DNA of 61,400 nt, filler included, from Sphacelaria rigidula (lineage: Eukaryota), in assembly GCA_964200075.2 (NCBI GenBank). It is 11 parts of 11 records of this genome, joined end to end, with 100 filler letters (N's around TTAATTAATTAA, not from the genome) between each part and the next. Parts side by side here need not be neighbours in the genome. Positions count along the whole stretch, not along the records: positions 16,775 to 22,265 come from CAXNAA020026892.1; 10 more parts are not named here. One strand, 5' to 3'. A program made the translations under genes and the position numbers. The notes beneath the pieces are model-generated. The model worked only from the letters and a program-made list of their open reading frames with translations. It was not told where the DNA came from and searched no databases. This document shows positions 18,601 through 21,912 of the stretch, in pieces. Positions within the stretch are counted from its first letter, which is position 1. Every line of letters begins with the position of its first letter.

Positions 18601-19029
18601 TGGGGGTCAAAAACCTTGTCAAATGTCCTAAAAGTGGAAAATACGAGCCAAACAAAATACGAACCGGAAAAAACGGCCTTGGCATGCAAATTTCTGATTT
18701 CAATCGTGGTTGCCATGTCGTTGTAGACAAAACTTTTCTTGCCGTAGGGGACTTCGCCATGCAGATTGTGTGCCAATATCGAACCTACAACGGCGGCGAG
18801 ACGCTCGAGGCACCGCCCCGCCCAGGTCTGTAGCCCGGTACCGATGTGTGTGCAGGGCCAAGGGTACTATGTCTGACACCGATGGCTCAGAGATACAACA
18901 GATTGCCTTCGCCGCATTCACCCTCTCGGTCAACGTTGGCCCACAGGAACAGTGTAGCAACGTTCACACCACACGATGTAGTTCACACGTCAACATACAC
19001 GACTACGATAAAATTGCCTCGGCTTTCAC

Positions 19030-19155
19030 CTGCATTTGCATCAAAAGTGCTCGGTGACTGAGCGTTGTGGCTACATCAGGGTGCTCCGGGCCAAAAACCT
19101 TTTCCCTGATCGCCTGGCATCGCTTGAGCAGTAGCTCGGCCTCGGTATACTTGCC
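19030..19155 (-). CDS. TPR-repeat exon [42 protein letters not shown]
   Basis: cag|GGC acceptor, CAG|gtgaaa donor, 126 nt, phase 0/0, kinesin-light-chain-type (TPR_10/12) LGPEHP signature. Confidence 0.9.
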
Positions 19156-19449
19156 CTGCAGTGCAGTACACGACGCGAAAGCACCACATAGCAGTCAACG
19201 TCGGACCTACAATGGCGGCGAGACTCTCGCGCCACCACCCAGCCCAGGTCTGTAGCCCGCAACCGATGTGTGTGCAGGGCCAAGGGTACTGTGCCCGATA
19301 TCGACGACTCAGATACAACGGGTTGGCTTTGCCACACTCACCCACTCAGTCAACGTTGGCCCACAAGACCAGCGTAGCAACGTCCACACCACCCGATGTA
19401 GTTCACACGTCAGCGCACATGATCATGATAAAACTGCCTCGGCTTTCAC

Positions 19450-19575
19450 CTGAGCTTGAAATAACTCCGCAAGGCTGCAGAGCGTTAAGGCCAAAGTAGG
19501 GTGCTCCGGGCCAAGAGCCTTTTCCCTGATCGCCTGGTATCGCTTGAGCAGTATCTCGGCCTCGGTATACTTGCC
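19450..19575 (-). CDS. TPR-repeat exon GKYTEAEILLKRYQAIREKALGPEHPTLALTLCSLAELFQAQ
   Basis: AG/GT boundaries, 126 nt, open frame. Confidence 0.9.
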
Positions 19576-19870
19576 CTGCAGTGCAGTACACGACGTGGAA
19601 ACATCACATAACAGTCAACGTCGGACCTACAGCGGCGACGAGACGCTCGGGGCGCGGCCCCGCCCAGGTCTGTAGCCCGCAACCGATGTGTGTGCAGGAC
19701 CAAGGGTACTATATCCGACACCGATGGCTCAGAGATACAACGGGTTGGCTTCGCCACATTCACCCTCTCAGTCAACGTTGGCTCATAGGACCAGCGTAGC
19801 AACGCCACACCACACGATGTCGTTCACACGTCAACGCACATGATCATGATGAGATTGCCTCGGCTTTCAC

Positions 19871-19996
19871 CTGAGTTCGGAATAACACCGCAAGATTGCA
19901 GAGCGTTAAGGCCAAAGTAGGGTGCTCCGGACCAAGAAACTTCTCCTGTATCACCTGGCACCGCTTGAGCAGTATCTCGGCCTCGGTATACTTGCC
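19871..19996 (-). CDS. TPR-repeat exon GKYTEAEILLKRCQVIQEKFLGPEHPTLALTLCNLAVLFRTQ
   Basis: AG/GT boundaries, 126 nt; lies within ORF 19844-20032. Confidence 0.9.
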
Positions 19997-20158
19997 CTGC
20001 AATGTAGTGCACAACGCAGTAGCATCACACAACAGTCAACGTTGGACCTACAACGGCGGAGACGCTCGCGCCACTGCCCCGCCGACGTCTGTAGCCTGCG
20101 ACCGATATGTATGCAGGGCCAAGGGTACAATGCCCGATATCGACGGCTCAGAGGTACA

Positions 20159-20415
20159 GAGCAATACTACGAATATGGTAGGGGTGCACTTTTTGCGCAA
20201 CATCTTGTTTGGTTCAGGGGCTCCCAATAATTTTAGATGCTCAAGAATATGGGATCCCCATTTGCAAGATCATTCGGGATATATCCCTAGCACACTGGAA
20301 CAGTAATGCTGACGTACTTTCATATATTTCCTAAGTCGGGTTTTGGATAAGATCAAGGGCTCCTAACAATTCTAACCTCGGGAAATATTTGTGCACCCCT
20401 ACCATAGCATCACTC
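20159..20415. mobile_element. MITE with GAG...CTC termini and 4-bp TSD (TACA), inserted in a TPR-array intron
   Basis: TIRs gagcaatacta...tggtaggggtgcac / gtgcacccctaccatagcatcactc. The empty site (tacaacgggttggct) is visible in sister introns. Confidence 0.85.
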
Positions 20416-20551
20416 TACAACGGGTTGGCTTCGCCCCACTCACCCTCTCAGTCAACCTTGGCTCACAGGATCAGCGTAGCCATATAAACTCCACACGATG
20501 TCGTTCACACGTCAACATATACGACTACGATAACGTTGCCTCGGCTCTCAC

Positions 20552-20677
20552 CTGTATTTGCAACGACCTCGCACGGTGGCTGAGCGTTGAGGCCAAATCA
20601 GGGTGCTCCGGGCCAAGAAGCTTCTCCTGCATCGCATAGCACCGCTCGAGCAGTGGCTCGGCCTCGGTATACTTCCC
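20552..20677 (-). CDS. TPR-repeat exon GKYTEAEPLLERCYAMQEKLLGPEHPDLASTLSHRARSLQIQ
   Basis: AG/GT boundaries, 126 nt; within ORF 20525-20713. Confidence 0.9.
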
Positions 20678-20946
20678 CTGCAATGTAGCACATGACGCAT
20701 AAGTACCACGCAACAGTCAACGTCGGACCCATAACGGTGGCAAGACGCTCGCGCCACCACCTCGTCCAGGTCTGCAGGGCGAAGGGTACTATGCCCGATA
20801 CCGACAGAGGTACAACCGGTTGAGTTCGCCGCACTCATCCTCCCAGTCAACGTCGGCCCGCAGGACGAGCGCAAGAACACCCACACCACACGATGTCGTT
20901 CACACGTCAACATACACGACTACGAGAAAGTTGCCTCGGCTCTCAC

Positions 20947-21072
20947 CTGAGCTTGCAACAATGACGCACGGCTGCCGAGCGTCATGGCCAAATCAGGGTG
21001 CTCCGGGCCAAGGCACTTCTCCTGCATTGCCTGGCATTGCTCGAAGAGGCTCTCGGCCTCGGTATACTTGCG
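20947..21072 (-). CDS. TPR-repeat exon RKYTEAESLFEQCQAMQEKCLGPEHPDLAMTLGSRASLLQAQ
   Basis: AG/GT boundaries, 126 nt; within ORF 20920-21108. Confidence 0.9.
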
Positions 21073-21369
21073 CTGCAATGTAGTACATGGCGCAGAAGCA
21101 CCACGCAACAGTCAAAGTCTAACCCACCACGGCGGCGAGACGCTCGCGCCACTGCCCCGCGCAGGTCTGCAGGCCGCGACCGGTGTGTGTGCAGGGTCGA
21201 GGGTACTATACCCGATATCGACCGCTCAGAGGTACCACGGGTTGGCTTCGCCGCACTCATCCCTCTCAGTCAACGTTGACCCACAGGACAAGCGGAATAA
21301 CACCCACACCACACGATGCCGTTCACACGTCAACGCACACGACTACGAGGAACTTGCCTCGGCTCTCAC

Positions 21370-21495
21370 CTGAGCGTGCAACAACACAGCGAGGTTGTTG
21401 AGCGTTGAGGCCAAAACAGGGTGTTCCGGCCCAAGATCCTTCGCCTGCATCGCCTGGCACCGCCTGAGAAGTAGCTCGGCCTCAGAAATCTTGCC
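21370..21495 (-). CDS. TPR-repeat exon GKISEAELLLRRCQAMQAKDLGPEHPVLASTLNNLAVLLHAQ
   Basis: AG/GT boundaries, 126 nt, canonical TLNNLA motif; translated by hand. Confidence 0.9.
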
Positions 21496-21786
21496 CTGCA
21501 ATGTAGGGCACGATGCAGAAGCACCACAAAACGGTCAACATCGGACCGTCAGCGGCGGTGAGACGCTCACGCCACTGCCTGCCCTGGTCTGCAGCCGGCA
21601 GCCGTGCAAGAGCCACAAGGGTACTATGCCCGATGTCGACGTCTCAGAGGTACAATGAGTTGGCTTCACCGCACTCAACCTCTCGGTCAGCGTTGATCCA
21701 CAGGACCAGCACAACAAGATCCACAACACACGATGTCGTTCATAAGTCAACACACACGACTACGACAAAGTTGCCTCGGCTCTCAC

Positions 21787-21912
21787 CTGGTTTTGCAACA
21801 ACAGGGCACGGACGCTGAGCGTTATGGCCAAATCAGGGTGTTCCGGGCCAAGAACCTTTTCCCTGATCGCCTGGCATCGCTCGTAAAATCGCTCTGCCTC
21901 GGTACACTTGCC
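21787..21912 (-). CDS. TPR-repeat exon [42 protein letters not shown] (first of the array in transcript order)
   Basis: cacag|GGC acceptor, CAG|gtgaga donor, 126 nt. Its upstream intron differs from the repeated intron. Confidence 0.88.

Follow-up and report, generated by a model that had tools for sequence, protein, structure and literature searches.

A minus-strand array of seven TPR exons of identical length in Sphacelaria rigidula is transcribed and spliced at the predicted sites, as seen in two probable RNA runs (X6 and X7). The array grew by tandem duplication of a ~420-bp unit that consists of an exon plus an intron, and at least one short helix-A tract was replaced from a diverged TPR exon. 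It is probably part of the C-terminal KLC-like TPR superhelix of a candidate intracellular receptor of the brown-algal type, most likely of an NB-ARC-TPR protein (NLR-like STAND). We regard it as a good further example of a known brown-algal design and not as a new system. The earlier note on this DNA had proposed the ligand-binding cassette of a receptor that is diversified by exon shuffling. The type of array, its splicing, the variation of the concave face and the recombination among units agree with a ligand-binding cassette, whereas whole-exon shuffling and combinatorial splicing do not find support.

Structure of the TPR exon array

The window, i.e. the whole stretch of 61,400 nucleotides that was analysed, consists of 11 joined pieces of ~5.5 kb each with N44-TTAATTAATTAA-N44 spacers between them. 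The piece that carries the array comprises 5491 bases (16775-22265) and ends 353 nt upstream of the first TPR exon. It had been remarked before that the NB-ARC part is missing from the contig. Indeed, the window contains none, but since the piece covers only 5491 bases of a joined window, this absence is due to the cut at 22265 and is not a finding. In a tblastn search of the window with 11 algal relatives, all 430 HSPs fell within 18700-22100, and no NB-ARC, capping repeat or further TPR was detected elsewhere. Self-blastn of the window revealed no repeat that is colinear across any spacer.

Tandem Repeats Finder detected two tracts, 18779-20158 (period 420, 3.3 copies, 84% matches, score 1939) and 20805-21915 (period 423, 2.6 copies, 78%, score 1308), in agreement with the ~420-bp units described previously. 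The array is on the minus strand; the strand had not been given before. Scanning this strand for AG, 126 nt without a stop and GT(A/G)A yielded exactly seven exons, each of 126 nt (42 aa) and phase 0/0: E1 (21787-21912, with AG and GTGA borders), E2 (21370-21495), E3 (20947-21072), E4 (20552-20677), E5 (19871-19996), E6 (19450-19575) and the mosaic exon E7 (19030-19155). All seven lack an internal stop, and each of the 14 splice sites is intact, which confirms the exon structure reported in the earlier note. Both Pfam families suggested there for comparison, TPR_10 and TPR_12, match all seven exons with E-values of 2e-9 to 1e-4 (8.5e-8 and 6.5e-8, respectively, for E1). No TPR exon was found on the opposite strand. 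Due to the symmetric phase 0 and the equal length of the exons, every subset of them is in frame, and skipping, loss or duplication of any exon is possible without a frameshift, as had been stated.

Residues 1-20 of an exon correspond to TPR positions 15-34 (helix B), residues 21-28 to the linker, and residues 29-42 to positions 1-14 (helix A) of the following TPR. The splice junction is therefore located between helix A and helix B, and each TPR is built from two adjacent exons. The description of one 42-aa TPR per exon holds for the period, but each exon encodes a helix B, the linker and helix A of the next TPR.

The introns, likewise on the minus strand, are 291 nt (intron 1, 21496-21786), 297 nt (intron 2, 21073-21369), 269 nt (intron 3, 20678-20946), 555 nt (intron 4, 19997-20551), 295 nt (intron 5, 19576-19870) and 294 nt (intron 6, 19156-19449) long. 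They align over their full length with a mean pairwise identity of 0.81 (range 74-88%), bearing out the homology claimed for them. Their lengths stay within 269-297 nt, with internal deletions in intron 3, except for intron 4, a family intron that is split by a MITE-like insert. Intron identity groups neighbouring units ({5,6,7} and {2,3,4}), and the units as a whole are 72-87% identical at the nucleotide level. The MITE-like insert (257 nt, 20159-20415, without assigned strand) carries a 16-nt perfect inverted core (20174-20189 and 20391-20406) and TACA on both flanks. Its summed DNA contig depth of ~4e5, compared to ~1e2 for the rest of the array, identifies it as a high-copy element, and a second copy with 80.7% identity is located at 60174-60342.

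Intron 7 (18773-19029, minus strand) is truncated, as its homology to the intron family stops ~40 nt short of the expected acceptor. Downstream of E7, tblastn with the exons and the 11 algal relatives did not reveal an eighth TPR exon on the piece. High-copy interspersed repeats (no assigned strand; summed DNA contig depth 3e4 to 1e6) occupy 16775-18650. On the other side of the array, 21913-22265 (minus strand) is the 3′ end of the intron upstream of E1 and is not homologous to the intron family. A bin in this region (21927-22110) has depth 0 in X6 and X7, and 22111-22265 is a high-copy repeat. Remnants of inactivated TPR exons in coding-strand introns belong to the picture of the Ectocarpus type of array; the sole match obtained here was a 26-nt stretch at 22020-22045 that may doubtfully derive from the GPEHP core (blastn E = 0.027, weak). 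A Pfam match was obtained for none of 17 ORFs in the flanks and for neither of two antisense ORFs on the opposite strand. The introns gave no Rfam match at E <= 1, and a covariation term of +0.44 from RNAalifold does not support a conserved structure.

Transcription and splicing of the exons

X6 and X7 are probably RNA, judging by their exon joints and empty introns. All statements on RNA and DNA contigs made here apply to the contigs listed, and contigs can drop rare forms. Record 22 of X6 joins 20946-21072, 21370-21494 and 21786-21916, i.e. E3, E2 and E1, gapless within the record, so that intron 2 and, exactly but for a 1-nt ambiguity, intron 1 are skipped. In record 28 of X7, E4 is joined to E3 with intron 3 skipped, followed by 125 letters without a listed placement and by E1. 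E7 is present with zero differences in record 27 of X7, where the 57 and 27 letters on its two sides differ from the adjacent introns; hence, E7 is spliced on both sides. In both X6 and X7, depth was present in every exon-bearing bin, including those of E5, but did not exceed 0.54 in five intron-only bins. For example, it was 0 in both for bin 21559-21742 (intron 1), and 0.11 in X6 and 0 in X7 for bin 19167-19350 (intron 6). DNA contigs of the samples X1 and X3 run across the exon-intron borders.

In record 22 of X6 and record 28 of X7, E1 continues into upstream sequence that is absent from the piece, and both contigs end 562 letters upstream of E1. The exon upstream of E1 ends in ACAG, a weak resemblance to another TPR exon. 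In total, unplaced stretches of 86, 26, 57, 27 and 562 letters are carried by the RNA contigs.

Sequence variation and recombination among the units

When the observed numbers of substitutions were placed randomly on the consensus exon, all seven exons stayed open in only 0.6% of 20,000 simulations. The openness of the exons is thus beyond neutral expectation (p = 0.006). Fifteen of the 42 residues are invariant. At least four different residues occur at exon positions 8, 20, 30, 33, 34, 37 and 41 (TPR positions 22, 34, 2, 5, 6, 9 and 13), with a threshold that was picked after viewing the data and with seven repeats only. Six of these seven positions belong to the concave-face positions 2, 5, 6, 9, 12, 13, 33 and 34 given in the part of PMC1261162 used here (hypergeometric p ~4e-5, threshold post hoc). 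This variation at ligand-facing helix-A positions supports the reading as a binding cassette. The pN/pS ratio is 0.88 in codons 27-41 versus 0.54 in the remaining codons. Conservation of the exons does not exceed that of the introns. Variable columns amount to 62/126 in exons and 138/296 in introns (p = 0.67), and a faster divergence of the exons is weakly suggested by the differences from the consensus (121/882 versus 217/1996; Fisher p = 0.033, with non-independent cells).

Within E7, a 45-nt patch (19033-19077, minus strand; exon nt 79-123, codons 27-41, helix A) has an ancestry that differs from the rest of unit 7. Comparison of units 6 and 7 showed 22 mismatches in the 45 nt of the patch versus 44 in 336 nt elsewhere (p = 1.4e-7), a contrast that was reached in 0 of 300 permutations. 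Synonymous differences affect 6.2 of 10.5 sites within the patch, compared to 0 of 18.3 sites in codons 1-26. The best matches of the patch within the array are E4 and E1 (~80% over the 3′ half of the exon), and no donor was found. The separate ancestry of the patch indicates short-tract gene conversion. In a PHI-like test, a value of 0.542 was observed compared to 0.582 ± 0.020 after permutation (p = 0.033). Exon and intron identities correlate with r = 0.14, a figure to which exons of 126 nt are too short to lend weight. Intron-mediated recombination, as proposed in the earlier note, is consistent with this recombination signal among the units. However, the one exchange that is clear replaced 45 nt within an exon and did not swap a whole exon through its introns.

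Relationship to NB-ARC-TPR proteins

The nearest proteins are from brown algae, with 64-79% identity per exon (69-79% for the best matches of E1). Searching longer proteins with E1 gave no database match above 79% identity, and the same ceiling applies to every exon, so that there is no ortholog to lean on. NB-ARC (PF00931) is listed for 8 of 11 algal/eukprot matches of E1, and a rescan of eight relatives showed an N-terminal NB-ARC followed by TPRs in seven of them. A C-terminal array of KLC-type TPR_10/TPR_12 repeats, as in NB-ARC-TPR proteins, is present here. A metagenome scan with a 19-nt exon/intron-junction pattern gave 23 loci, each with a single match; as they lack both a TPR and similarity to the window, we consider them chance matches.

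In the sections of Zambounis et al. (PMC3341825) that were compared, to which all references to this paper are limited, 13 Ectocarpus NB-ARC loci are described as having TPR exons of 126 nt and 42 aa that share a motif. This motif, GKYxEA[E/D]PL[Y/F]...Gx[D/E]xxx[V/I]AxxLxNxAxLLxxQ, has 8 x's in the middle of its printed form instead of 11. Read in the 42-residue register, every one of the seven exons agrees with it at 14-15 of the 19 specified positions, and most deviations occur at P8, [YF]10, [VI]28 and N34. The exons also have the length of 126 nt (42 aa), the identical size and the symmetric phase by which TPR exons are defined in PMC3341825. Together with the brown-algal nearest proteins, most of which carry NB-ARC, these features substantiate the likeness to the Ectocarpus one-repeat-per-exon arrays that had been noted before. 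Further shared properties are the GKYxEAE start and the Q at the end of the exons, the KLC-like TPR_10/TPR_12 type and indications that exons have diversified and exchanged sequence. On the other hand, identity to the Ectocarpus proteins compared is only 52-69%, indicating another species or a distant paralogue. Homology of whole introns, the divergence of introns versus exons and sub-exon conversion tracts are not described in those sections of PMC3341825, although its supplements or Teng 2023 may cover them.

The same exon design would be expected if the array belonged to a TPR protein without NB-ARC. This could be a protein made of TPRs alone, a kinesin light chain or a protein whose N-terminus is a different module, such as TIR, ankyrin or CHAT, and its role would be another one, e.g. 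scaffold or cargo adaptor. We consider this unlikely, yet it deserves to be weighed. Three of the 11 algal relatives (P0005, P0019 and P0100) list no NB-ARC, and for P0005 none was found at E <= 1e-5. However, the gene models of relatives without NB-ARC may be incomplete, and the C-terminus of P0019 resembles an unspliced intron. Equal-length phase-0 exons also exist in ‘other repetitive TPR’ loci (PMC3341825), and the TPR domains of KLC1 and KLC2 are the closest solved structures (E 1.5e-21 for E4), but most of the nearest proteins are NB-ARC-TPR, and no kinesin light chain occurs among the named matches. Should the stop of the RNA contigs 562 letters upstream of E1 mark the real 5′ end, an NB-ARC would not fit in. 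Weak evidence against a protein without NB-ARC is the ACAG end of the upstream exon, which resembles a further TPR exon. Additionally, 72-87% identical units with homologous introns point to a recent expansion, which would be unexpected for a housekeeping six-TPR domain.

Origin of receptor diversity

For the NB-ARC-TPR receptor, which we prefer, diversity would be evolutionary and arise in the germline. Unequal crossing-over between homologous introns of identical phase would add or remove units without a frameshift, and short-tract gene conversion together with diversifying selection would reshape the groove that binds the ligand. Ligand binding would then be turned into oligomerisation and signalling by an NB-ARC module upstream. 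No sign of somatic rearrangement or of regulated combinatorial splicing was seen here. The 420-bp unit, the junction between helices A and B and the sub-exon exchange speak for ordinary unequal crossing-over and gene conversion in the germline rather than for a machinery dedicated to shuffling. The idea that diversity is generated by exon shuffling and/or alternative splicing has been published before (PMC3341825), and both have been attributed to the NB-ARC-TPR family (Teng 2023, Plant J 114:246, as cited in PMC11378527 and PMC12879055).

It appears improbable that the array is a working cassette system in which regulated combinatorial splicing or somatic recombination between introns creates many receptor variants per individual, although any subset of exons is in frame and the introns are 74-88% identical. 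Such a system would be in line with the alternative splicing of NB-ARC-TPR genes cited above and with the somatic recombination proposed for the Ectocarpus family in PMC3341825. However, the RNA contigs listed, which can drop rare forms, contain consecutive exons only and no exon skipping, so that combinatorial splicing as suggested in the earlier note is not borne out. The DNA contigs listed for X1 and X3 tile 18651-22152 in the same order, with the exception of 19506-19971 (unlisted). These two samples from different studies share the array order, the MITE-like insert, both junctions of which are also present in X3, and the 3′ break in intron 7, which is spanned by contigs covering 18651-19164 in X1 and 18651-19271 in X3. 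The contigs show 0 and 1-7 differences each. A differing order or number of exons was observed neither among the DNA contigs listed for the two samples nor among the RNA contigs listed. Two DNA joints inside the array, 19374>21752 and 19171>21129 (the latter with 40 foreign letters between), look like paralogues, as they are out of register between units and have a shorter flank of 21 letters where listed. Also, according to PMC11378527, brown algae lack any report of somatic recombinant loci, of site-specific recombinases or of clonal immune cells. If it were true that the locus varies within one individual, its importance would be far greater.

It is conceivable, but very improbable, that the similar introns are maintained as pairing substrates and that tracts of ~45-85 nt import foreign helix-A patches into units that are otherwise conserved. 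Such a templated ‘patch conversion’, possibly somatic, would renew the binding groove of an NLR-like receptor of the alga. Somatic activity has been speculated on by Zambounis et al. (PMC3341825). Patch conversion is compatible with, but not required by, introns that equal or exceed the exons in conservation, synonymous saturation that is restricted to the E7 patch and hypervariability of the concave face. Least probable is the reading as a decaying piece of a receptor gene that is dead and lost its 3′ end to transposon insertion: intron 7 is truncated at ~18773 and followed by ~2 kb of high-copy repeats, the piece lacks a capping TPR, unlike the ends of several relatives, and birth and death rates of the family are high (PMC3341825), but seven open exons with 14 intact splice sites (p = 0.006 under neutrality), spliced RNA contigs and the onward splicing of E7 to 27 more letters argue against it.

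Comparison with other repeat-based systems

With this array, the one-repeat-per-exon TPR design gains a clean example that is expressed and lies beyond the Ectocarpus proteins compared. The duplication unit of 420 bp that includes the intron, the splice junction between helix A and helix B and the sub-exon tract at ligand-facing positions are details that go beyond the sections of PMC3341825 compared. Brown-algal LRR-ROCO genes (PMC3341825, PMC11378527) resemble the array in having one repeat per exon, in-phase introns, proposed shuffling and alternative splicing and a candidate role as immune receptors. Their repeat, however, is an LRR of 24 aa encoded by a 72-nt exon, and their signalling module is a ROC-COR GTPase. 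Moreover, their introns are in phase 2 (PMC11378527), whereas the exons of the array are in phase 0/0. Shuffled LRR exons are found on both strands according to the parts of these sources compared, in contrast to the array with no antisense TPR exon.

The internally highly conserved TPR-like repeats of fungal NLRs (solved examples 4y6c and 4y6w, Podospora anserina) have the same KLC-like period of 42 aa and match E4 with E-values of 1e-13 to 4e-14. These 42-residue repeats are thought to diversify via repeat reshuffling in the sensor domains. They are located within a single exon, and recombination acts on the coding repeats and not on units of exon plus intron. The TPR domain of kinesin light chain (3nf1, 5oj8) also consists of 42-aa TPRs and is the closest solved structure by sequence. 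Its superhelix binds peptides in the concave groove and comprises six anciently diverged TPRs behind a coiled coil. In the array, by contrast, seven or more units with homologous introns were duplicated recently, and its nearest full proteins are NB-ARC-TPR and not KLC. In arthropod Dscam, alternative exons are spliced in a mutually exclusive manner. The Dscam exon arrays, cited as an analogy for brown-algal receptors (PMC11378527), and gene-conversion systems share with the array tandem exons of equal phase that encode binding modules, whereas the array transcripts listed include their exons consecutively.

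Architecture of the TPR exon array

The window, of 61,400 bases, is composed of 11 pieces of 5490-5492 bases each and is not one contig. Between the pieces stand ten copies of one and the same spacer, N44-TTAATTAATTAA-N44 (5493-5592, 11084-11183, 16675-16774, 22266-22365 and six more), and a self-comparison of the window gave nothing indicating that neighbouring pieces adjoin in the genome. Features on different pieces, such as the PP2A gene named in the earlier note, need not lie next to the array.

The array lies within the piece 16775-22265, and its gene is on the minus strand. 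Scanning for AG, 126 stop-free nucleotides and GT(A/G)A yielded exactly seven exons, from E1, the most upstream (21787-21912), through E7 (19030-19155). Tandem Repeats Finder reported a period of 420/423 bp, with repeats at 18779-20158 (84% matches, score 1939) and 20805-21915 (78% matches, score 1308). The introns, of 291, 297, 269, 555, 295 and 294 nt, could be aligned with one another end to end. Seven open 126-nt exons with AG/GT borders, units of about 420 bp and homologous introns, as described in the earlier note, were thus all recovered. The Pfam profiles that it had pointed to, TPR_10 and TPR_12, were matched by all seven exons, and the closest solved structures are the TPR domains of kinesin light chain. 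In 20,000 trials with random substitutions at the density observed, the full set of seven exons stayed open in 0.6%. The intact array is therefore not a product of chance, and the seven-exon observation is confirmed, well beyond chance.

The 555-nt intron (intron 4) holds a 257-nt MITE-like insert at 20159-20415, which has a perfect inverted core of 16 nt with TACA at either side and a very high copy number in the DNA runs. The last piece carries another copy, of 80.7% identity (60174-60342). The seventh homologous intron stops at about 18773, some 40 nt short of the expected acceptor, and is followed by a high-copy repeat of about 2 kb without a coding match. This downstream block also contains a near-perfect palindrome (18420-18458, hairpin arms of 19 nt and 19 nt), which may be a transposon end structure.

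All seven introns begin with GTGA(G/A)AGCCGAGGCA, and in each the ninth codon is an in-frame stop, within the first 27 nt (e.g. 21760-21786 and 19003-19029); any retained intron would therefore end the protein in V(R/K)AEAxxS. The introns matched no known RNA family, and a conserved RNA fold in them had no covariation support. Neither of two antisense ORFs matched Pfam, and a metagenome scan with the exon/intron junction pattern returned chance matches only.

Expression and splicing

Contigs of four runs were compared with the array: X1 and X3, DNA runs from different studies, and X6 and X7, which are labelled 'RNA?' and are probably RNA runs. One X6 contig (record 22, 1031 letters) matches 20946-21072, 21370-21494 and 21786-21916 back to back. 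These segments are E3, E2 and E1, and introns 2 and 1 have been spliced out where predicted, to within a 1-nt alignment ambiguity. An X7 contig (record 28, 1097 letters) contains E4, E3, 125 letters unplaced among the matches listed, and E1, and each of these two contigs extends 562 letters upstream of E1, off the piece. In X7 record 27, E7 is present with zero differences, and its flanks of 57 and 27 letters are unlike the introns next to it. Splicing therefore occurs at both ends of E7, and at least one more exon must be located past the repeat block. The X6/X7 depth was 0 to 0.54 in five intron-only bins, and depth was present in every exon-bearing bin.

The exon-intron borders are crossed by DNA contigs of X1 (0 differences) and X3 (1-7 differences per contig). 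Contigs of both runs have the same order over 18651-22152 among the matches listed (19506-19971 not being among them), and the MITE junctions and the 18773 break are common to both. No exon-skipping joint was found among the matches listed, in contigs that drop rare forms. The matches listed give no example of combinatorial splicing or somatic rearrangement at the array and make both less likely.

The bin 20455-20638 covers the 3′ part of E4 and the 5′ portion of intron 4, on its donor side. Its depth in X1 was about 10 times that of the other array bins, and it was much higher in X6 and X7 as well. This suggests contigs of close paralogues or of another repeat, of at least 90% identity.

TPR register and variable positions

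In the TPR_10 alignment, model positions 16-42 correspond to exon residues 1-27 and positions 1-15 to residues 28-42, and the TPR_1 model, 34 residues long, begins 28 residues into the exon-like unit in two relatives. This puts TPR position 1 at exon position 29. Each exon encodes helix B, a linker of 8 residues and then the following repeat's helix A. Splicing joins helix A to helix B, and thus two neighbouring exons build every TPR. Loss or gain of a unit would create a new A/B pairing while the period of the fold is kept.

The exons are no better conserved than the introns, with a mean pairwise identity of 0.776 compared to 0.81 and of 0.781-0.826 in every 126-nt intron window. Identity at codon positions 1, 2 and 3 is 0.788, 0.788 and 0.752. 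Differences from the consensus amount to 121/882 in exons and 217/1996 in introns (p = 0.033, on non-independent cells), and variable columns have an equal share (62/126 versus 138/296, p = 0.67). The excess of exon change over intron change is weak.

Fifteen of the 42 exon residues are invariant (K2, E5, A6, E7, K19, GPEHP at 22-26, A29, T31, L32, A36 and Q42), and at least four residues occur at each of seven positions (8, 20, 30, 33, 34, 37 and 41), which are TPR positions 22, 34, 2, 5, 6, 9 and 13. According to the retrieved passages of Magliery and Regan (2005; PMC1261162), the most variable TPR positions are 2, 5, 9, 12, 13, 33 and 34, all on the concave face, and HOP contacts its ligand through positions 2, 5, 6, 9, 12 and 13. 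Six of the seven hypervariable positions are within the union of these two sets (hypergeometric p about 4e-5, with a threshold chosen post hoc). In codons 27-41 the pooled pN/pS is 0.88, and in the remaining codons it is 0.54.

Unit duplication and probable gene conversion

By intron identity, neighbouring units cluster as {5,6,7} and {2,3,4}, with unit 1 apart, a pattern that local tandem duplication of entire exon-plus-intron units would be expected to leave. The four-gamete test was failed by 58% of informative site pairs, and sites close together had slightly greater compatibility than in shuffled data (0.542 versus 0.582 ± 0.020, p = 0.033).

E7 and E6 are 94% identical over the first 63 nt and only 65% over the last 63 nt, and the introns flanking E7 are 84-88% identical. 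The best window for this change is exon nt 79-123 (19033-19077), with 22/45 mismatches compared to 44/336 elsewhere (p = 1.4e-7; matched by 0 of 300 permutations). Synonymous differences in this patch reach 6.2 at 10.5 sites, compared to 0 at 18.3 sites in codons 1-26, so that the patch has a different ancestry and does not merely reflect fast amino-acid change. The pattern suggests that a diverged TPR exon donated this short tract by gene conversion. No donor was found in the array, where E4 and E1 match best (about 80% over the 3′ half of the exon). The exchange is intra-exon and lies over the ligand-facing helix. The earlier note had proposed recombination through the introns; this clear case sits inside an exon and is not a whole-exon swap. 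Most likely, the array was built in the germline by tandem duplication of units and reshaped there by gene conversion and helix-A diversification.

Relatives and probable linkage to NB-ARC

When E1 was searched against longer proteins, the best matches were brown-algal: a eukprot entry (79%), Sphacelaria rigidula (74-76%), Scytosiphon promiscuus (71%) and Ectocarpus (69%). None was near 100%, and the product of the array gene is therefore absent from the searched collection. NB-ARC is listed in 8 of 11 algal/eukprot matches. On rescanning, seven of eight relatives had an NB-ARC domain, at about residues 60-490, ahead of their TPRs; one of the relatives also had a TIR domain and one had ankyrin repeats. 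The array gene is fairly likely to be linked to NB-ARC. The absence of NB-ARC remarked on in the earlier note stems from the end of the piece, 353 bases upstream of E1, and is uninformative about the gene. The linkage is probable even though NB-ARC is unseen on the piece.

Zambounis et al. (2012; PMC3341825) describe 124 TPR exons, each 126 nt (42 aa) long, from 13 of the 24 Ectocarpus NB-ARC-TPR loci. They give the search motif GKYxEA[E/D]PL[Y/F]...Q, report inactivated exons lying within introns as well as indications of diversifying selection, and suggest that exons are shuffled and even that recombination is somatic. The array likewise consists of 126-nt TPR exons that fit this motif, at 14-15 of its 19 specified positions. 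Both mechanisms put forward in the earlier note are thus already in print for this brown-algal family (Zambounis et al. 2012; Teng et al. 2023, Plant J 114:246, as cited in PMC11378527 and PMC12879055). According to PMC11378527, brown algae have no reported somatic recombinant loci, site-specific recombinases or clonal immune cells. The interpretation is partly supported: the array is expressed, is of the TPR sensor type and belongs to the kind of exon array already published for brown algae.

Several brown-algal relatives (the proteins P0003, P0006, P0008 and P0100) end in a distinct C-terminal capping repeat (...EAIPLLERAL.IRTK.LG..HP.T...), unlike the internal units; an exon for it was not found on the piece 16775-22265. 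The Ectocarpus relative P0019 has the C-terminus ...EAQVRAKR..., as if its gene model ran on into an intron of the array type.

Other features of the window

Three long stop-free stretches of 422, 365 and 249 aa, without a Pfam match, lie on the plus strand at 2127-5190. This region is GC-rich (0.606) and contains direct repeats at 3963-4612 that are about 86-91% identical.
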